Part shown: positions 9,070 through 34,611 of the stretch, one piece after another
Position numbering within the stretch: the first letter of the stretch is position 1
Layout: every line of letters starts with the position of its first letter
NCBI GenBank assembly: GCA_963701095.1
Contig: OY969564.1
Span: forward strand, 2,240,001-2,304,000
Reading direction: 5' to 3'
Source of the DNA: an uncultured Methanoregulaceae archaeon
Lineage (GTDB): Archaea; Halobacteriota; Methanomicrobia; Methanomicrobiales; Methanospirillaceae
DNA: 64,000 nt
Position numbers and translations under genes: made by a program
The notes under the pieces: model-generated
The model's database searches: none
What the model was told of the DNA's origin: nothing
The model's input: the letters and a program-made list of their open reading frames with translations, nothing else

Positions 9070-10104
9070 TTATTTTCCGGAAGGCTTCCGGTGCAGGGAC
9101 TTGTCTTCCTCGACAATATAGTTGATTACATTCTCTGAAATATCTGCAGCGTACTCTCCTGACCTGCGGATACTCTCGGCAATATAGCTGACAGAAACAG
9201 CCATCATCGTCTCCTGTTTAAAGGCAAGGTTGTGGATGTCGCCGCAGATATGTTCAAGGGCCGAAACCGATTCGATAGTCTTATGGGCCTCCTTGATATC
9301 GGCATTAAAAAACGAAATAACGCTCTTATCAAAGATTTGCATAGACATCGCACTTGCCTTCTTTAATGAAGTTATGATCTTCGGGTCGAGCTCGGTATCC
9401 ATCACCGGTTGTGCATTCTCGGCAATCCGTACGGCATGATCACCGATCCGTTCAATGATTTTGCTGATGAGGTGATAGTACATGGCCATACCGACCGACA
9501 CTTCCATCTTCCGCGAGAGGGACGGGTTCTGCATGATCATGTTGGTCTGCCGTGCTATCAGCCAGTTGAGCCGGTCTGAGTCCATATCCCGGTTAATCAC
9601 ATCAGTAGCAAGTGTCGCGTTATGCGTTTCAAGCGCCATAATGGCATCTTCATGCATGTTCCTGACAATCACAAACATCCGTTTTATGGTGTTATCAAAG
9701 GGCATCTCGGCAGGGTTGAGCAGATCTTTAATGAGGATAAGTGTATCGGTCTCTTCGATGACTTCCTGGCCGATAGTCATCTGGGTGAAGTCCCGGACAA
9801 CCGTACGGACAAATGGCGGGAACCGTTGTTTTGAGCTTATCCGGATTGTGGTAAACCCGGTAATGTATGTCCCGATAAGCATCCTGAACAGGAAGGAAGG
9901 GTCGGTAATATGACCGATATCGATCTCCTTGACCCGCTGGACCGGATCCTCAGTGGTCTTTTTGGTAACCAGAAGGGTACCATCGGGCTGGGTGATCAGT
10001 CCGACAGGATCGTTCTTCTTGATGCGCATTTCCTGGACCCAGTCTTTGGGTAGCGTAACGACAAACGATGACCCCCCGGTCATCTGTACACGGCGTATTT
10101 CCAT
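9070..10104 (-). CDS. phoU: Phosphate uptake regulator: N-terminal AbrB/SpoVT DNA-binding domain plus PhoU domains
   Basis: MEIRRVQMTGGSSFVVTLPKDW start; IERIGDHAVRIAE and IRRSGEYAADISE PhoU helices; AGGAGG RBS. Confidence 0.92.
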   Translation of the reverse strand: MEIRRVQMTGGSSFVVTLPKDWVQEMRIKKNDPVGLITQPDGTLLVTKKTTEDPVQRVKEIDIGHITDPSFLFRMLIGTYITGFTTIRISSKQRFPPFVRTVVRDFTQMTIGQEVIEETDTLILIKDLLNPAEMPFDNTIKRMFVIVRNMHEDAIMALETHNATLATDVINRDMDSDRLNWLIARQTNMIMQNPSLSRKMEVSVGMAMYYHLISKIIERIGDHAVRIAENAQPVMDTELDPKIITSLKKASAMSMQIFDKSVISFFNADIKEAHKTIESVSALEHICGDIHNLAFKQETMMAVSVSYIAESIRRSGEYAADISENVINYIVEEDKSLHRKPSGK

Positions 10105-19136: not shown

Positions 19137-19751
19137 CTATCCGTGTCGCTCTCTGGTATCGATTAGGAATCCTTCATCGCTCACTGTGAAAGGTAGCATC
19201 TTTTCAGAAAGCTTGGCTCCCTGCATTTTGGGGATATTGAGAAAACGTTTGAGTTTATCCCCTTCAATTACGGTGGTCACCTGAATAATCCCGTCTGCCA
19301 TAGCCCGCAAAAGTGCCTCATGCCGTTCGGGGAGAACACCGCGATCTACAAGCAGGAGGAGAACATGGCCGGTTTTTGCTGCGGTGAGGAGCCGGGAAAT
19401 AGCGTCCCGGAATTCGGAAAGAGGCGTATCAAGGAAATAGAGTGAAAACTGATCTACGATCACCAGGTTGCAGTTCCCAGGGAGTGTAAGAATATCAAGG
19501 AGCGGTCCGGGAGCGGTTCCGTGCATTTCTTCAATATGGAATCCCTTCACCGGCAAAATTCTCAGGAGTTTCATGTCATCGCGGATCTCGTCTGATGCTC
19601 TTGTGGTGATATAACACACGTCTTTTCCGTCAGCTGCCGCCTCTGAGGCTATATATTGGGCATAGATTGATTTGGCGAGCCCCAAATCTTCTTCAATCAG
19701 GATCACGCTCTTTTTCGGAAAATTATCTAAGCCATGAACGAGTGTCATCAA
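19137..19751 (-). CDS. Single-domain KaiC/RAD55-like RecA-superfamily protein with degenerate Walker A
   Basis: VCYITT, LVIVD.FS, MADGIIQ, RFLNIPKM, PFTVSDEGF.IDT. Confidence 0.8.
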   Translation of the reverse strand: MMTLVHGLDNFPKKSVILIEEDLGLAKSIYAQYIASEAAADGKDVCYITTRASDEIRDDMKLLRILPVKGFHIEEMHGTAPGPLLDILTLPGNCNLVIVDQFSLYFLDTPLSEFRDAISRLLTAAKTGHVLLLLVDRGVLPERHEALLRAMADGIIQVTTVIEGDKLKRFLNIPKMQGAKLSEKMLPFTVSDEGFLIDTRERHG

Positions 19752-24300: not shown

Positions 24301-24648
24301 ATGAAAACGGGTTACGGGTGGATTGAGATCTATGCTGTCCGGTATGACCATGATATAATTGTTCACCGCGATCGTTCGATCGAGAAAAGATCCAAGAAAA
24401 AATCCCGCAAATACCGCAGTTTCTTTAAACATACACCTTTGACTGACAGCGAGCTCGCTTTTCTTGAGGAAGAAAAACCCGATATTGTGTATATCGGGAC
24501 CGGACAATTCGGTGATCTTCCCATTACCTCAGAGGCACTTCTGATTCTTGCAAAGTTTGGGGCAATAATCCGGCCGACCCCAGAGATAATGAATTTTTTT
24601 TCCTCTGAATATCGCTCATTTGCAGCTATCCTCCATGTAAAGTGCTGA
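24301..24648 (+). CDS. Mth938/DUF498-like protein
   Basis: YDHDIIV, PDIVYIGTGQFG, PTPE, AILHVKC. Confidence 0.8.
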   Translation: MKTGYGWIEIYAVRYDHDIIVHRDRSIEKRSKKKSRKYRSFFKHTPLTDSELAFLEEEKPDIVYIGTGQFGDLPITSEALLILAKFGAIIRPTPEIMNFFSSEYRSFAAILHVKC

Positions 24649-24852: not shown

Positions 24853-26798
24853 ATGGCTGAAAAACGTGAGATCCTTCATGAGCTCGGCGAAGATGAACTC
24901 CTCCTTCCTACTCTCCTCAACTCCGCCCTGAAAGCGAACGACAGGATCAAATATTATTTTACTCTTCTCCAGGCAGCAAAAAACCATGCAGATAACCCGG
25001 ATCAGAGCCATTCGAATCTTAGGGCTGAACGGGAGTCTGTTGGGATTTCCGATCCTGATCTCGATATAGTTGTTGGCGGTTCAACAAGGGCCGGAGAAAA
25101 AGAATATACCATCCCTTTGGCAGGACTGATTTTTCATGAAATGTCGATAGCCATTGAAGAAATGGTATCTCCCCTTGCCTCAAAAAATTCTCCAGAAGTG
25201 GACAGTTTCAATGAGAGATTTACCCACCTGCGTAGTTCCCTCTCTCTATCCGGAGAAGAACCGGTATCTGGCGATCTTATCAATAATATTACGCTGGCCG
25301 ACCGGGGCAGTGGTACTGACAGCCTTCACCTGCTGGTAATGGATCTTCATAAAGCCATAAATTCGCTGCAGACGCAGATCGCGAACGAAGAAATCGATGG
25401 TGCACTCGGCTATCTTCTCATCGACCCGGATCGGGAAATGGTCCGGGCCTTCATGACTGGCGTCAACCGCACAGCCCCGCTCAAATTCGGTCATCCCGGT
25501 CTTGCGACAATCGCAACCCGAACCGGGGACAAACTGGTAATCCAGAATGATATTGGCCTTACTGATGCACATGTACTCGTCGTCACAGTAAAAGATCAAA
25601 CGATTACCATTACTTATACGGATATTCACCTTCCACGGCTGCATTTCTTTCAGAGTCTCTTCCATCCATTTCGGGTGCAGTGGAGCGATACGATCTCCCG
25701 GACGCCGGAGAAAAAATTCGAAGCCCCGGTATACCACCTTTCCGTGGGAACTTTCACTGCACACGATGAAACAGATGCTTGGGATTTCCTCACTCATGCA
25801 GGGTCGCGTGTCGTCTTTTTAATCGATTGGAACCGGGCCCGGAAAAGATTGCGCAATTTTGTTCCGAATGCTGATGCAATTGAAATTCTTGCCCGTGCAG
25901 CTGAGGAGGAAACAGGGCACATCGCTTTCCTTGAGCTGGGGGGGAAAGGCTGATCTATGAGGCTCTCGAACTGGCATCAAGTATCCCTCTCCGGTACGGT
26001 GAACCGTTACATGCGATTCTTGGCAGGGAGCAGACCATGGAATATCTTCAGTTTGTCCTCCGGACAGCATCGAAGGGACTTCTGGCAAATACGTCCCGTT
26101 TTCTTCTTCAGAATGAGATCCGTGCCGAGCTGCTCCGGTATTTCCGGACGGCACACGAAGGGATGATGGATCTCTGCGAAGAACATGCCTCGTATTCCAT
26201 AGAAATCGCTTCAATCGTCCTTGAATCCTTATGGCTTGCATCTGATCAGCACGATCCTCTGATCATTTCGCGCAATGCCGCCCGGGGGAAGGAATGGGAG
26301 CATAATGCTGACGATCTTGTGAACAGGATGAGGAATCTCTCCCAAAGGATCCAGAACCCGGAATTCTTTATCTCTCTTATCGCAACCGCAGATGACGTCG
26401 CCGACTATCTGGAAGAGGCTGGCTTTTTCATTACCTTGATCCCGGTTCATACCGATTCCAAAGATATTTTCTTTGAGCTCAGGAACCTTGCGGAGCTGGT
26501 CCTGAAGGGATGCCGTGGTTACCTGAAAATCCTGATTGCAGCCCAGGAATTCCATAGCACGAGCCAGCGCGAAGATCTCAAGGATCTGCTGACCGCTGTT
26601 GACGAGGTCTTTTCAATTGAGCGGCTCTGTGACGAATCCCTGAGAAGGACAGAGCGGGTGATCTTTGAGCAGTGCACCGATTTTAAGGAATTCAATCTAT
26701 ACCTCGAGATTGCGAGAACCCTCGAAGAAGCTTCCAATGCCCTTTTGAAAGTTGCTTTCCACGTCAGGGACTACATGATAGAGAGCATGAACCGATAG
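24853..26798 (+). CDS. Large protein with C-terminal DUF47/PhoU-like (phosphate transport regulator) domain; -1 frameshift in the G run at 25938-25944
   Basis: Frames join as LELGG-ERLIYEAL; C-terminal KEWEHNADDL, ADDVADYLEEA, IERLCD, LEEASN are DUF47-type helices. Confidence 0.78.
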
Positions 26799-26810
26799 GA
26801 TGGATACCAA

Positions 26811-28412
26811 ATGACCGACGAAACGCCCCGGATTGTATTTTTCGGACCAGATGTTAAGACAGAAGTATCCTCGGATGATTTCGGGAATAAGGCGTCTGTA
26901 CTGACAAGGATGTCGGCTCTGGGTATCCCGGTGCCCCCTGGGTTTGCCCTATCTGTTGACCTCTGCGAGGAATATTTCCGGAATGGTCAGGTTCTTCCCG
27001 ATGATGTACCTGAATTACTCCGGCAGGGACTTGCCTTCATCGAGCGGTCTACCGGGCTGCGATATGGTGCCAGTCGAAGGCCTCTGCTTGTCTCGGCACG
27101 CTCCGGAGCGGCCGTGAGCATGCCCGGGGCAATGGAGACGATCCTTAATATCGGGCTCAACCGTGTTACCGTGCGAGGCCTTATTGCACAGACCGGGAAC
27201 CCGAGATTTGCCTGGGATTCTTACCGGAGGTTCCTTGAATATTTTGGAACAATTGTTTTCTCCCATGATCCTGGGTCATACCGGAAAATTGAACGCCAGG
27301 TTATGGAAGAGGAACACGTGCCAGATGAATCCGTTCTTGATTTTGCCGCCATGAGAAGCATCGCTGAACAGTACGAACAATTGTATCCCCGTACAAACGG
27401 TAAGCGATTGCCGGATGATGTCTTCTCGCAGCTCGAACTCGCAACAACGGCGATCCTCCAGTCATGGAACAGCTCCCGTGCCCAGGCTTTCAGAAATATG
27501 AATCTCAATTCAGGCGCACGAGGAACTGGTGTTACGATAGAAGCCATGGTTTTTGGAAACCTGGGCTCGCTCTCCGGGGCTGGTGTTGCATTCTCACGAA
27601 ACCCCTTGACCGGCGTTAACGAACTTCTTGTTGATTTCAAGTTCGGCGCACAAGGTGAAGATATTGTATCAGGACTCATGGGGGTCGTGTCGCACCAAGA
27701 ATTCGCCGCAAGGATTCCTCTTGCTGCGCGTGAATTATCCGAGGCTGCGAAGAGACTTGAGTTCATGTACCGTGATATGCAGGATATAGAATTCACGGTT
27801 CAGGAAGGGAAACTTTTCATCCTCCAAAGCAGATCCGGGAAACGCGCTCCGCTCGCCGCCCTGAAAATCGCTGTAGATCTTGTCCACGAAAATATTATTG
27901 CAAAAGACGAAGCAGTTAGCCGGGTGAGGGATATCGATGCAGAGGCGATCACCATTCAGACTATCAAAACCTCTAAATCGCCTCTTGCTGTGGGTATTTC
28001 AGCTTCCATGGGTGTAGCATCTGGGAAAATTGCCCTTAGTGCCGAATACGCAATCGAATTATCTAAAAATTCGCCGGTCATCCTCGTCCGGGAAACCGCA
28101 AATCCGGATGACATTGGTGGTATTGGTGCCTCTCTTGGTATCCTTACGGTGAGAGGTGCAAGAACCTCCCATGCAGCCGTTGTCGCACGACAAATGGGGA
28201 AAGTGTGTATTGTGAGTTGTGGCGACCTGAAAATTGATCTGGCTCGGCGTGCGTGCACCTTCCCCGGACGTGATCTCTACGAGGGTGATTATATCACCCT
28301 TGATGGCGGGAATGGACAGATTTATGAAGGGATCGTTCCCGTGGTAGTGGAGAAACCAGTAGAACTTATTCAAGAGCTGCGTATGTGGAATTCAGATACA
28401 CCTGCCCTATGA
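26811..28412 (+). CDS. Truncated pyruvate,phosphate dikinase-like protein (nucleotide-binding and phospho-His domains only)
   Basis: GNKA, PVPPGF, LLVSARSGA..SMPG.METILN, AMVFGN, DMQDIEFT, LQSR, TSHAAVVAR; ends at 533 aa. Confidence 0.9.
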   Translation: MTDETPRIVFFGPDVKTEVSSDDFGNKASVLTRMSALGIPVPPGFALSVDLCEEYFRNGQVLPDDVPELLRQGLAFIERSTGLRYGASRRPLLVSARSGAAVSMPGAMETILNIGLNRVTVRGLIAQTGNPRFAWDSYRRFLEYFGTIVFSHDPGSYRKIERQVMEEEHVPDESVLDFAAMRSIAEQYEQLYPRTNGKRLPDDVFSQLELATTAILQSWNSSRAQAFRNMNLNSGARGTGVTIEAMVFGNLGSLSGAGVAFSRNPLTGVNELLVDFKFGAQGEDIVSGLMGVVSHQEFAARIPLAARELSEAAKRLEFMYRDMQDIEFTVQEGKLFILQSRSGKRAPLAALKIAVDLVHENIIAKDEAVSRVRDIDAEAITIQTIKTSKSPLAVGISASMGVASGKIALSAEYAIELSKNSPVILVRETANPDDIGGIGASLGILTVRGARTSHAAVVARQMGKVCIVSCGDLKIDLARRACTFPGRDLYEGDYITLDGGNGQIYEGIVPVVVEKPVELIQELRMWNSDTPAL

Positions 28413-29789: not shown

Positions 29790-30994
29790 ATGTACGCAAT
29801 GAAACGCATGAACAATGATATGGCAGTCTCACCGATTGTCGCGACGCTCGTCCTTATCGTCGTCGCCGTCATCGGTGCTGTTGCAGTCGGAACCATTATG
29901 GGTTCCTTCTCAACCCAGGTATCGAAGCAGGCAAACGCAGGGCAGGCATCGTCCGCATCCCAGACCGAGATTCTCGTTGCTGGTTCGACAACCCTCCAGC
30001 CCGTTGAAATCAACCTTGCATCAGACTATGCAAAGATCAACCCCGGTATCCAGGTTAACGTCCAGGGTGGATCATCAGGTGTCGGTGTAACCGCTGTTGC
30101 AACCGGTATCGCTGATATCGGTGCATCTTCAGCCGCATCCAAGATCACCGCAGGACAGGCAGCAAACCCGTCCAACCCCGGCTACCAGAACCTTTACGCA
30201 CAACTCATCGGCGGCCGTGCAGTTGCATGGATCACCAATGCCGCATCCCCGGCTGTCGCATCAGGCACAGTTAGCGCATCTGATCTCCAGCAGGCATACA
30301 GCACTGCCCTTGGATCAAACGGTACCCTTCCAGCTCATGGGCAAACAGCAGCAGCATTTCAGGAAATGCCATTATGGTTTCCCGTGCAGACTCATCTGGA
30401 ACTGAAGACGATGCAAGCACCTGGCTCTTTGGTGCAACCGGCAAGATCAACTCCTCATACACTATTGCAGAGACTGGCAACGAAGGTCTTCGTTATTATA
30501 TCGCTACGACGGCACACACACTCGGTTTCTGCGACGCAGGCTGGGCACTCACCAACCCGTCCGGTATCGAGATCCTCAACGTCACTGACTGGACCGCAGC
30601 AACAAGCCCAGACTCACTCTACACTCCAGAAGTAGCAACTGGCACAGTAGGAGAAACCTACGGTGCAGTCACCAAGACTGAAATGATGGATGCTCTTAAG
30701 GACTGGTATTTCGGCAGCGCACAGGACCACTCAGGCAGTGCAGTTGCAACCTCTGGCGTACACACTGGCCAGCAGATCGGTAACTACCCCCAGGGACTTG
30801 TCGGCGGTATGTACTGGATCACCCCAGCTACCGTCCCAACCGTCTTTACCGCCCGTGGAACCATCCAGACCCAGGGAAGCAGCGCAGCATCAAGCACAGT
30901 CAAGGACCTCATGAACTTCGCAGTGTCACCCGTAGAACAGCCAGCATTTGACAACGTCGGTGACTTACAGATTAACGAGTTCGCCTCGACATAA
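29790..30994 (+). CDS. pstS: PstS-type phosphate-binding protein fused to an archaeal type IV pilin (class III) N-terminus; -1 frameshift near 30330
   Basis: NDMA|VSPIVATLVLIVVAVIGAVAVG; then AGSTTLQP, VQGGSSGVG, ADIGASS and, in the second frame, SRADSSGTE; directly upstream of pstC. Confidence 0.88.
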
Positions 30995-31003
30995 GACCAT
31001 ATA

Positions 31004-31019
31004 ATTTTTTTCTTTTTTT
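31004..31019 (+). terminator. Oligo-T tract after pstS (archaeal-type terminator/attenuator)
   Basis: ATTTTTTTCTTTTTTT about 10 bp after the stop codon. Confidence 0.5.
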
Positions 31020-31038
31020 GACTGAGTGTAATTAAATA

Positions 31039-31956
31039 ATGAAAAGCAAATCAGAGATTCATAAAAATCTCTTCCTCTTCTGTGCCTTAGCCACTGTGGT
31101 CACAGTTTTTTCCGTCATTTTGTTTATTCTGATAAATGCAGCACCAGTATTTCTCCAGTACGGCTTTGGGTTCATCTTCGGAACCACATGGGACTACCCC
31201 ACTCACCAGTATGGTGCCTGGCCACTCATAACAGGGACATTATTACTGACTGCAGTGACGATGGTGATCTCGGTTCCTGTGGGCATTGCAACTGCGGTTT
31301 TCCTCTCTGAATGGGCGCCGCCGTGGCTCGACCGGTCCCTCTCCACGCTTATCGAACTTTTGGTAGGGATACCTTCGGTCGTTTTTGGTATACTCGGTTT
31401 TTTTGTATTCCGGGATTTTTTCCGGTATGGTATCAATCCGTTCATCGCAAACAATCTTGGTTTCATTTCATTCTTTCAAGCAGGTTCTACAGATGGTTTC
31501 GGTATCCCGATAGCATCGTTTGTCCTTAGCCTGATGATCCTTCCCACAATTATTGCTCTTTCGACAGAGGCGATGAGGAGTGTCCCGGCAGAGCAGCGTG
31601 AAGCATCAGCTGCTCTTGGCGCGACTGACTGGGAAACCATACGGGATCTCATCCTTCCCTCGGCAGTCCCCGGAATAACGACCGGCGTGATTTTGGGAAC
31701 GATGCGAGCAATGGGTGAGACTATGGCTGTGGTCATGCTCGCCGGAGGTGCGTATGGAGTTCCAACGTCCGTTCTTGATTCTGTCCTGCCACTGACTGCA
31801 AAAATCCTCATCGATCTTGAGAATTATATCGCCGAACCGGAACCAAGGAGCGCTCTTTTCGCTCTTGGCGTCCTACTTATGGCAGTGGAAATCGGTTTTG
31901 TTTTAGCTATTCATATCATTACCGACAAAATGAAGCGGCGGTATGGCGGTGCCTGA
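31039..31956 (+). CDS. pstC: Phosphate ABC transporter permease PstC
   Basis: YG.WPLI.GT, IELL.GIPSVVFG, MILPTI, EAS.ALGAT, RAMGETMAV. Confidence 0.95.
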   Translation: MKSKSEIHKNLFLFCALATVVTVFSVILFILINAAPVFLQYGFGFIFGTTWDYPTHQYGAWPLITGTLLLTAVTMVISVPVGIATAVFLSEWAPPWLDRSLSTLIELLVGIPSVVFGILGFFVFRDFFRYGINPFIANNLGFISFFQAGSTDGFGIPIASFVLSLMILPTIIALSTEAMRSVPAEQREASAALGATDWETIRDLILPSAVPGITTGVILGTMRAMGETMAVVMLAGGAYGVPTSVLDSVLPLTAKILIDLENYIAEPEPRSALFALGVLLMAVEIGFVLAIHIITDKMKRRYGGA

Positions 31957-33071
31957 TGAAACGGCGTTATGTCAAAGGTCAGATCATCAAGATAATCTGC
32001 GGCACTATTGCGTTTCTTCTTGCGGGGATGCTCATCCTCATCGTTGCAATATGTCTTATCAAAGGATTCCCCTCCCTTAACCCGAAATTTTTTCTCGTTA
32101 CCGAAAACGTGGCCGGGGGTTACAAGGGAATAGGGACGGGCATTGCCAATGCTATTGAGGGTACGTTCCTTCTCGCTCTCACATCTACCTTACTCGCTCT
32201 TCCATTCGGTGTGGGCACAGCAATTTATCTCCAGAGATATGCGCCAGATAACCGGTATACCAGGTCACTCCGGTTCATTATAGAAGTCCTTGCTGGTACG
32301 CCATCAATAGTCCTTGGTATTTTTGGCGTGATTGTCCTTGTTATTTACCTAAAACCTATAACCGGGGGAGAATCGTTATTTGCAGGTGCTATTGCTCTTT
32401 CTATACTTGTACTTCCGGTTATAATCCGGGCCACAGAAGATGCAATTATCCGGGTGCCATCAGAGCTTGAGGAAGCCAGCTATGCCCTTGGTGCTACGAA
32501 ATGGCTGACTCTGAAAAATATCACTATTCCCGTTGCCCTTTCCGGTATTGTTGTCGGTGCTATTCTCTCGTTTGGCAGGGCTGCTGAGGAATCGGCTATA
32601 GTAATTCTGACCGCAGGATATTCACAGTATGCCCCGGAATTTAAGGTTGTTGCTAACCCGACGTTTTTACTCGGTATAAAAATATATCCCCTTAACAATC
32701 TTGTTGGAACTATCCCGACACTGATCTATACAGGGTATGAAAATTCTGGTGTTTACCCTGAATCTTTCGTCTTTGCCGCGGCCTGCGCTCTCATTATGCT
32801 CGTTTTGATCATCAACCTCTCGGCAAAGATCATTCTCGCATTTGCAACGGCAAATATGAAGGGAAATCAGGATACCCTTTTATCTTCCCTTTTTGAACCT
32901 TTATCAGACCCCTTCCACAGGAAAAAACCAAAAAAAATACCTTCATGTAGCGACGTGGAGACTGTATCCGTGGCATCAAAAGAATTATTTTCCAAACCGG
33001 AGGAGATCCTCACTTCCGAACCGCCGAATGAGTCAGCCCGGGAAATGCAAAGCTTACCCAGGTACTGCTGA
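31956..33071 (+). CDS. pstA: Phosphate ABC transporter permease PstA, possibly fused to the next ORF
   Basis: AIEGT, LAGTPSIV.G.FG, EEASYALGATKW, GRAAEESA; TGATG coupling to pstC. Confidence 0.93.
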   Translation: MKRRYVKGQIIKIICGTIAFLLAGMLILIVAICLIKGFPSLNPKFFLVTENVAGGYKGIGTGIANAIEGTFLLALTSTLLALPFGVGTAIYLQRYAPDNRYTRSLRFIIEVLAGTPSIVLGIFGVIVLVIYLKPITGGESLFAGAIALSILVLPVIIRATEDAIIRVPSELEEASYALGATKWLTLKNITIPVALSGIVVGAILSFGRAAEESAIVILTAGYSQYAPEFKVVANPTFLLGIKIYPLNNLVGTIPTLIYTGYENSGVYPESFVFAAACALIMLVLIINLSAKIILAFATANMKGNQDTLLSSLFEPLSDPFHRKKPKKIPSCSDVETVSVASKELFSKPEEILTSEPPNESAREMQSLPRYC

Positions 33072-34611
33072 ACTATCTGTCGATTCCACGCTCAGTAATG
33101 CTGAAAATCTCTCCGTTGCCCCTAGCAAGAAAAAATTTTCTGTTGGTGCCGGGATTAAACGGGGTTTTAATACTATTAGCCAAAAAACCCGTATTTTTGT
33201 CCATGACACCGGGAAAAAGGAAACTACTGCAAAAATGGCCACGGTTCCTGGCAGCTCAGATTACCTCGGTCCCATTCGTAAAGTGAAGATCTCCCATATT
33301 AGGAATATTATAGTCTCATTCAGATCGTTCCTCGTTACTCTCGCCCCGTTTGCATTGGTTACTGTAATTCTCGTAGCTCTAACCGCTATGCTACCTGTTC
33401 TGTCACCAGTAGGATCTAATGGGCCGGCTGGTTCCCTGACTGTTCCCCTCATGACTCTAATCATATGCGTGATCGGAACGGTATGTGCTCTCTTCCTTGT
33501 GCGTAATAGTACTCTCTTTTTATTGCGGCGCCAAAAGGGACGAATGGGGAACCGGCGTGCTGAGTTCGCCGCGATCGCAATCGGATTTTGTTTTGTCCTT
33601 TTCGGTGCATTCATGTTTTCCGTTCATATTTTCTCACCCGTCCCGTCAATTCAGTCTCCGGGTTCAGGAGCATCAACGGGTACAGGCATATTCAGTTACT
33701 TCACTCCTTCAGGAAATGGCGGACTTTCTGAAATCAGTGGATTAGTTTTTAATAACAGCCTGTTTAGCTTCGTTTATAAGCCTGGAAATGGGACAACCCC
33801 CCAGGCCACGGACACATCCAACAGGGCCGCACAGATGGCAGCACTACTGGCTTCTGAAGAGACACCCGTAGCGACAACTACAACTCCCCAAAGCACACCG
33901 GCAGCACTCCAACCCTCACCAGTGCTGTCCTCCTCTACAGCGGTGTCATCACCAGGATCGGTCGTTCCGGTAAAAAACGCGCTTGATATAGGAGAATCCT
34001 ATTGGTATGGCGATAACAGCCGGCCGTGCTTGGCGACGATTTACAATGCAACAACTATGCCACTCTATTTCTATTGGGATATAGACTGGAACCGGTTTGT
34101 CCAAGTAACTCCGGCATCGAGCGGGGACACATTCCTGGTTATCTTCATCCGCATCGAAGACACAGGAAATATGAGTGCCATTGTCCCGCCTGGAGCTCAG
34201 TATGTTGTTTATTATAAAGGTCAGGCATATTACAACGAACCGTATTTCGATACTTCTGTCCTCGATGCGAACGAAATTAGTATTTATACGGCTAATTTCA
34301 ATCTCCTTCCCTACCAGTGGATCCGCGAGATCGGGCAGCAAAGGCGAGATTATGCCTTCCTGACCGGGTATAACATCTTTGGTCAGAACCAGACTCTTGA
34401 ATCAAATTATTCGGCCAATACCCAGTTCGCCCCCCCAAGTGCCACCACTCCCAACGGGGAAGGTTGGTTTATCAAGCCCGGACGGAGCAATGCCATAGAT
34501 GGGTACCTGATCTATGAAGTCCCGGGAGCTGTTGCAACGGATCTCAAAGATACCTACGTTCAGGTGCCTTTCAATAGTTTCAGCTCAACTCAATGGCGCC
34601 TCGGAAAATAA
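33058..34611 (+). CDS. Three-TM protein with Ser/Thr/Pro linker and extracellular DUF4352-like Ig domain; probable C-terminal extension of PstA (alternative start 33235)
   Basis: Open frame overlapping the pstA end; GDTFLVIFIRIEDTG and IKPG...DGYLIYEVP are typical of DUF4352-like domains. Confidence 0.7.
   Translation, partial: PGTAELSVDSTLSNAENLSVAPSKKKFSVGAGIKRGFNTISQKTRIFVHDTGKKETTAKMATVPGSSDYLGPIRKVKISHIRNIIVSFRSFLVTLAPFALVTVILVALTAMLPVLSPVGSNGPAGSLTVPLMTLIICVIGTVCALFLVRNSTLFLLRRQKGRMGNRRAEFAAIAIGFCFVLFGAFMFSVHIFSPVPSIQSPGSGASTGTGIFSYFTPSGNGGLSEISGLVFNNSLFSFVYKPGNGTTPQATDTSNRAAQMAALLASEETPVATTTTPQSTPAALQPSPVLSSSTAVSSPGSVVPVKNALDIGESYWYGDNSRPCLATIYNATTMPLYFYWDIDWNRFVQVTPASSGDTFLVIFIRIEDTGNMSAIVPPGAQYVVYYKGQAYYNEPYFDTSVLDANEISIYTANFNLLPYQWIREIGQQRRDYAFLTGYNIFGQNQTLESNYSANTQFAPPSATTPNGEGWFIKPGRSNAIDGYLIYEVPGAVATDLKDTYVQVPFNSFSSTQWRLGK

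Follow-up and report, generated by a model that had tools for sequence, protein, structure and literature searches.

Enzymes of the swivel-His family have repeatedly gained new chemistry by swapping their acceptor domain. RPH, which releases AMP and inorganic phosphate (Pi), is one precedent for such a swap (PMC4844700), and HpeHI, CreHI and PpsAB are dikinases with a swapped acceptor domain or with split chains (PMC12167813). The only characterised pyruvate, orthophosphate dikinase (PPDK) that we found to lack the barrel for pyruvate and phosphoenolpyruvate (PEP) is VadK. Given ATP and Mg in Tris/NaCl with no added Pi, its swivel His took up 80 Da, trace Pi not being excluded (PMC13400623). 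In PhoU proteins, E/D-x3-D acidic pairs have been described as metal ligands (PMC7326077). Here we describe a gene pair found at positions 24853-28412 (+) of a 64,000-nucleotide stretch of DNA (the window; contig OY969564.1) from an uncultured Methanoregulaceae archaeon. It encodes a barrel-less PPDK-like kinase and, upstream of it, a partner with a DUF47/PhoU-like tail.

The pair is a widespread, uncharacterised variant of the swivel-His dikinase type with an unclassified partner domain, and no published description of it was found in a literature search that had most subscription journals outside its reach. It is real and conserved, not a product of decay, and judging from sequence its two proteins very probably form one functional phosphotransfer unit. 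Its occurrence as adjacent or fused genes across archaea and bacteria suggests that this unit is probably a two-part enzyme putting phosphate onto an acceptor other than pyruvate, the candidate acceptor domain being an unclassified region of 430 amino acids (aa) in the partner.

Conservation and assembly of the gene pair

The partner gene (24853-26798, +) codes in intact relatives for 648 aa, made up of the ~430-aa unclassified N-terminal region and the DUF47/PhoU-fold tail. The open reading frame (ORF) of the kinase (26811-28412, +; 533 aa) begins with its ATG 12 bp after the partner stop, the spacing that a first-pass annotation of this DNA had reported. We examined 64 loci of this pair, of which three duplicates, two loci at a contig edge and one short remnant were dropped; in the 58 informative loci the short kinase always lies directly downstream of the partner and on the same strand. 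Furthermore, all 69 long homologs of the partner N-terminal region (1135-3240 aa) are partner-kinase fusions with PF01326 and PF00391, none of them with PF02896, and these natural single chains make the pair easy to test. No fusion to a polyphosphate enzyme was present among the 69, longer forms of the kinase not having been searched for. As a control, 80 PPDK-family loci from metagenomes were inspected: 71 had the barrel and none of these (0/71) the partner, two had the partner and no barrel, and seven had neither, five of them being cut by the contig end.

Partner homologs are numerous (3,250 among 8,000 scored candidates, with 305 representatives at 50% identity and E <= 1e-30) and come from methanogens, a Nitrososphaeraceae archaeon, Alpha- and Betaproteobacteria, Geobacteraceae and Acidobacteria, as well as from Solirubrobacteraceae in fused form. 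The nearest named relatives of the pair are Methanoregula species. The module was detected in 16 of 301 genomes of the window's phylum, in 15 of 401 of one alphaproteobacterial order and, for two further phyla, in 2 of 351 each, counts that include the query genome in every case. Three module genomes (bacterial or archaeal) also hold a barrel-bearing frame of 883-970 aa, read as a full PPDK, so that the module need not replace PPDK. Members of this pair number in the thousands in databases, where they go by "pyruvate, orthophosphate dikinase" or "DUF47 family protein", and PPDK calls in methanogen and soil genomes can therefore be wrong.

The first-pass annotation described the partner as a protein of ~650 aa, which holds for the relatives (a member of the same genus has an intact gene of 648 aa, with 82% identity over the first part) but not for the window as assembled, where no such ORF exists. 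Here one base is missing at 25,936/7, directly before a G7 run (frameshift site 25936-25944, +), which breaks the gene into an ORF of 366 aa (24853-25953) and another frame at 25938-26798. We read the break as an assembly error because a contig assembled from run X1 in Logan (2047 bp, no substitutions and one gap) has the missing base, the same run is one base longer at the pstS break at 30,331, and ppk1 is also split in frame in the window's genome (G000). The CHAD gene and one ppk2 among four ppk2-like loci appear to be split likewise (C1:51578-56520, 762343-763807), in line with assembly indels. Run X1 is possibly the window's own sample and counts as a second assembly, not as an independent organism; contigs of runs X2 and X3 likewise carry the base. 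Programmed frameshifting at 25,936 was ruled out, the relatives and the second assembly being in frame. The RNA run X15 contained short pieces of related strains with no bearing on expression at this locus, and a promoter and terminator scan of the locus gave chance-level hits only, its models being of bacterial type.

The kinase

Pfam recognizes in the kinase an ATP-grasp domain (PPDK_N, about 26811-27839, +) and, after a linker, the phospho-His swivel domain (PEP-utilizers mobile domain, about 27975-28346, +), and residues 24-511 align with solved PPDKs (E about 1e-116). The TSH loop reads G449-A-R-T452-S-H454, where His454 (codon at 28170-28172, +), the predicted phosphohistidine, is found in 75 of 75 family rows. 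This is consistent with the ATP-grasp motifs and phospho-His loop noted at first reading. K27, R97, R140, E327, Q339, R341, T452 and R460 are equally invariant, and E283, D284 and D325 show only Asp/Glu exchange in the 75 rows. These residues line up with PPDK catalytic positions (Lys, Arg, Asp, Glu, Gln, His), among which the role of the PPDK-family Lys22 has been described (PMC4844700). Family marks are R451 (74/75) and Q461 (68/75). Based on these residues and by analogy with VadK, autophosphorylation of His454 from ATP is likely. Control at Thr452 by a PPDK regulatory protein was considered and rejected, since PF03618 was not found in five of five module genomes and gave hits in 4 of 14 controls.

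The protein stops shortly after the conserved P516/W526. W526 aligns with the linker-helix Trp of full PPDKs, so the end of the kinase falls at a domain boundary (domain limits as in PMC5371819). In the same Pfam scan no PF02896 barrel was found in the kinase, and a barrel query on G000 (86% complete) returned only two PEP synthases elsewhere (769 and 839 aa) and no full PPDK. No barrel was found in any of the 64 pair loci either, and the best 120 kinase homologs, of 366-591 aa, all lack PF02896, proteins of up to 933 aa having been eligible. The clean end without barrel or remnant described in the first-pass annotation is shared by these closest homologs, and no separate barrel gene accompanies the pair at its loci.

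These data bear on the possibility that the kinase is a decayed PPDK, or one half of a split PPDK with the barrel in a separate gene, next to a partner that is a pseudogene or a chance neighbour. Such a view would agree with the frameshifted partner of the window, with the patchy presence of the module among genomes and with the few relatives that are frameshifted too (L012, L020, L072, L080, L082). We find it hardly credible, and treat decay or complementation as ruled out: the break is missing from the second assembly, the best homologs are short without exception, the barrels of G000 are confined to its PEP synthases, and the barrel-free loci and the fusions point the same way.

The curated models also set the kinase apart. 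It scores 524 bits with the PPDK model TIGR01828 (relatives 492-602), below the cut-off of 843, and 423 bits with NF004531, whose cut-off of 456 is passed by one of nine relatives, at 461. In a quick, unrooted IQ-TREE of 29 rows, 19 module kinases are on one side of a branch with a Shimodaira-Hasegawa-like approximate likelihood ratio (SH-aLRT) support of 100; the other side has six full PPDKs, three VadK-like plasmid proteins and a short Skermanella protein. This separation indicates that the kinase is an old lineage of its own, neither VadK nor a recent decay product.

A regulatory kinase of the VadK kind, acting on third proteins and with the partner as modulator or scaffold only, would have the same two-domain architecture, and VadK indeed undergoes autophosphorylation at its His and is expressed together with a partner from its operon (PMC13400623). 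NF004531 gives the module kinases 394-461 bits, but nine of ten are under its cut-off, compared with 768 and 479 for the VadK-like proteins of Rhodococcus and Streptomyces. We hold this explanation to be decidedly unlikely, given the fully supported branch between both groups, the dissimilarity of the ~200-aa partner of the VadK-like kinases to the 648-aa partner (hhalign probability 0.9%) and the catalytic-looking conservation of the latter, which a scaffold role leaves unexplained.

Other short PPDK relatives were seen along the way. On two Rhodococcus plasmids (L055, L057) a VadK-like kinase and its ~200-aa upstream gene are located between genes for an AMP-binding ligase and a biotin carboxylase. 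A Skermanella plasmid (L065:1447-3138) codes for a 563-aa barrel-less PPDK that overlaps the stop of a pyruvate kinase gene and clusters with the full PPDKs; here the pyruvate site might come from the pyruvate kinase. Yet another barrel-less variant (L131:1402-3471, L150:1743-3821) is open for ~690 aa from the start of the match, has a GGLASH loop and ~250 unassigned residues beyond the swivel domain, and has no partner of this family.

The partner protein

The partner can be divided into three parts. Residues 1-177 (24853-25383, +) are a four-helix bundle, residues 178-362 (25384-25938, +) an alpha/beta domain with the helices that follow it, where we would place the acceptor site, and residues 431-648 (26142-26795, +) the DUF47/PhoU-like domain. 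Conserved positions of the bundle are K4, N29, K33, R122, D156, H159 and H166. R122, H159 and H166, together with T207, H214, N232, D233, H240, D257, H259, R262, D325, W326, N327, R330, K331 and H356 of the second part, are kept in 95-100% of 113 partner rows, and the window's partner retains the conserved residues that were checked. The motifs PLKFGHPGL, IQNDIG.TDAHV and DWNRARK, singled out in the first-pass annotation, are among the most conserved blocks of the 113 homologs. Columns conserved at 90% or more number 31 in residues 151-270 and 21 in 311-365, against 10 in the whole DUF47 tail, and with conservation focused in this way the two N-terminal segments look like an active site.

That the N-terminal region is unassigned, as had been noted, was borne out. 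It belongs to no Pfam or NCBIfam family, no Pfam match recurs across 35 homologs, and its model has no Foldseek match at E <= 0.001. A search of the ESM Atlas with the partner gave clusters of its own family plus one unnamed 530-aa cluster below 0.9, and in a scan of 301 genomes the matches over profile positions 1-430 were all full-length partners, the remaining ones being stand-alone DUF47 proteins with frames mostly of 230-300 aa. AlphaFold2 modelled the intact relative P0001 with a predicted local distance difference test (pLDDT) of 92.6 for the whole protein and 94.1 for residues 1-430. The best fold matches of residues 188-324 are MotA C-terminal/ACT-like domains (Z up to 8.6, root-mean-square deviation (rmsd) 3.3 A over 105 residues, 6% identity). 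We do not take this match as function, nor is a new fold thereby shown, 325-430 being barely covered. Covariation between partner and kinase in 118 paired rows (79 effective rows at 80% identity and 32 at 62%) yielded top pairs made up mainly of the same few columns, that is, phylogenetic noise.

The assignment of the tail to DUF47/PhoU, also proposed at first reading, is supported by profile and fold searches; in Pfam, the PF01865 match of the window (23.5 bits) lies just below the gathering score of 24.4, which 9 of 35 tested homologs pass. It matches 3l39 with a TM-score of 0.82 by target, an rmsd of 2.4 A and a profile E of 4.6e-8, and the ten top-ranking Foldseek rows are PhoU-like without exception (E 1.3e-3 to 3.3e-2). 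The acidic pairs of the tail are E483/D487, D514/D518/E521 and E590/D594, accompanied by R598; E483/D487, D514/D518 and E590/D594 are kept in 89-96% of the 113 rows.

Some of these features would also fit the main rival to a two-part dikinase, the relay put forward at first reading, a His-to-His relay in which His454~P would be passed to a His of the partner, switching the control that the DUF47 tail exerts on a phosphate or Mg transporter, with SixA resetting it and Pi, as co-substrate, making the kinase a Pi sensor. The N-terminal region has six near-invariant His residues, the PhoU fold is regulatory, and the kinase retains the PPDK residues R140, E283 and D284. The structural matches of the 1-177 bundle do include CheA P1/HPt domains (Z 7.1-7.9), but its model finds only generic bundles (VIA-align), the HPt domains rank below unrelated ones, and most of the invariant polar residues lie outside the bundle. 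In addition, autophosphorylation of VadK with no Pi added (PMC13400623) weakens the argument that Pi as a substrate means a Pi sensor, but the VadK-like clade is a different one and trace Pi may have been present.

Gene neighbourhood

A phosphate or polyphosphate gene lies within 6 kb of the pair at 10 of the 32 archaeal loci and at 5 of the 28 from bacteria (15/60), compared with 6.5% of G000 positions, a moderate bias. In archaea and Alphaproteobacteria the pair is found within pst, ppk, ppx or CHAD clusters of several independent layouts: ppk1-CHAD-ppx (L009, L043, L048), pst-phoU-DUF47 (L021, L026), sixA-ppk2 (L012), pstSCAB immediately before the pair (L067) and CYTH-CHAD immediately after it (L080). 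Of the 16 module genomes 15 have ppk1, as do 104 of 301 genomes overall. Together, these neighbourhoods and the DUF47 fold with its acidic motifs give some support to a link to phosphate metabolism.

Two neighbours would suit the His-to-His relay. A sixA gene adjoins the 3' end of the kinase in 5 of 32 archaeal loci, but SixA is routine in polyphosphate clusters (PMC12995831), and 6 of the 28 bacterial loci have an MgtA-like P-type ATPase gene within 6 kb, but no transporter or output gene is constant among the loci. All considered, we regard the relay as rather unlikely, and rate a catalytic acceptor role of the partner, suggested by the pattern of its conserved residues, above a pure signalling relay.

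The MgtA-like genes beside the pair are those of Acidobacteria and Proteobacteria (L016, L032, L033, L034, L040, L067 and L080, that of L034 being a piece at a contig end), and a CorC/CNNM gene is near L037 and L039. In the window itself a pst-like cluster (29790-33071, +) starts 1.4 kb downstream of the pair, with a pstS-like gene and two ABC permease genes similar to pstC/pstA. It is a second pst-like cluster, with no pstB beside it, and in run X1 its pstS is free of the frameshift at 30,331. After it (32893-34611) come an ORF of 572 aa that Pfam does not recognize and a gene for a PKD-domain protein. On the upstream side, a small gene resembling DUF498, with a score under the cut-off (24301-24648), is 205 bp away from the pair; further out are a fragment of a KaiC-like ATPase (19137-19751) and, 15 kb upstream, an AbrB/MazE-PhoU phosphate regulator (9073-10104, -), whose ortholog is 2.5 kb from the pair in L008.

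Proposed function

The partner is obligate, in some cases fused to the kinase, and has an active-site-like cluster, as would suit an acceptor domain, and for this reason we prefer to see the pair as a two-part dikinase in which the partner would replace the pyruvate barrel as acceptor site, the PhoU-type tail would gate the enzyme, and the role would be in phosphate homeostasis, a tentative reading to which we give a little less than an even chance. In a first step, suggested by the conserved residues and by the PPDK and VadK precedents, the ATP-grasp domain would move the beta-phosphate of ATP to His454, and AMP would leave together with pyrophosphate (PPi), if Pi takes part, or with Pi, if water does. 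The swivel domain would then turn to the partner, whose ~430-aa N-terminal region may hold the acceptor in its His/Asp/Arg-rich site. In a third step, the least secure one, the DUF47/PhoU tail would bind metal or phosphate and gate the enzyme, and the acceptor might come from phosphate, PPi or polyphosphate homeostasis, not from carbon metabolism.

Several observations weigh against this two-part dikinase of phosphate homeostasis. Fold searches gave no convincing match of the N-terminal region to any enzyme. PhoU/DUF47 proteins are known as regulators, not as enzyme subunits (PMC7326077), and VadK is a barrel-less PPDK able to act as a regulatory kinase (PMC13400623). There is no phosphate gene within 6 kb in 45 of the 60 loci, an evenly drawn bacterial set has one nearby in only 2 of 16, and the 6.5% background was drawn from a single archaeal genome, G000. 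Regarding ppk1, it is present in all 24 genomes of the window's family (f1), with the module or not, and G111 has the module and no ppk1. Kinship inflates the neighbourhood and ppk1 counts alike.

The many loci with no phosphate gene nearby, whose neighbours are diverse, would also fit a two-part dikinase for an organic metabolite, outside phosphate homeostasis, with the DUF47 tail as a structural or oligomerising part. In PPDK the dimer contact is carried by the barrel, and with the barrel lost this contact may need replacement. CreHI/HpeHI would be the family precedent (PMC12167813). We consider this alternative unlikely: no catabolic gene recurs beside the pair in the annotated loci, the tail keeps its E/D-x3-D acidic pairs, and the placement in pst, ppk, ppx or CHAD clusters arose in several independent layouts.

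A bolder reading, which we regard as very doubtful, is that of a dikinase working reversibly on polyphosphate (or Pi), ATP + Pi + polyP(n) = AMP + PPi + polyP(n+1). The unclassified domain of the partner would then be a catalytic fold of a new kind that binds polyphosphate, with the DUF47 tail as its gate for Pi or metal. It is suggested by the conserved basic and His residues, the ppk, ppx, CHAD, CYTH and sixA neighbours and the co-occurrence with ppk1. If true, the reaction run backwards would turn AMP and PPi into ATP and use up one polyphosphate residue, a new polyphosphate/PPi energy route common to methanogens and soil bacteria.

Comparison with known systems

With PPDK (EC 2.7.9.1; TIGR01828; PDB 1kbl, 5jvn) the kinase shares the ATP-grasp domain, the linker, the swivel domain and the catalytic positions. 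It differs in having no pyruvate/PEP barrel, in its obligate partner, in its separate clade and in its TIGR01828 score, as well as in the phospho-His motif, which is GG[MKR]TSH...ARG in PPDK and G-[AG]-R-T-S-H...ARQ here. VadK (Rv1127c; NF004531/PRK05878; PMC13400623) is also a barrel-less PPDK and has a small operonic partner, but this partner is unrelated and the gene context is different. The module kinase belongs to another clade, as judged from a tree in which VadK was represented not by itself but by the three plasmid-borne VadK-like proteins.

RPH, HpeHI, CreHI and PpsAB resemble the pair in reusing the ATP-grasp domain and the swivel His with another acceptor domain, sometimes on two polypeptides (PMC4844700, PMC12167813). 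None of their acceptor domains was listed for the partner in Pfam, NCBIfam, PDB-profile or fold searches, and in the pair a PPDK-type ATP-grasp and swivel are on one chain whereas a PhoU-fold tail is on the other. Finally, the tail has the six-helix fold and the E/D-x3-D acidic pairs of DUF47/PhoU_div (PF01865; PDB 3l39, 2olt) and PhoU (4q25), but it is fused to the 430-aa unclassified region and tied to a kinase. A PhoU-fold domain coupled directly to an ATP-driven phospho-His enzyme would offer a simple two-protein system for studying what PhoU-type domains sense.

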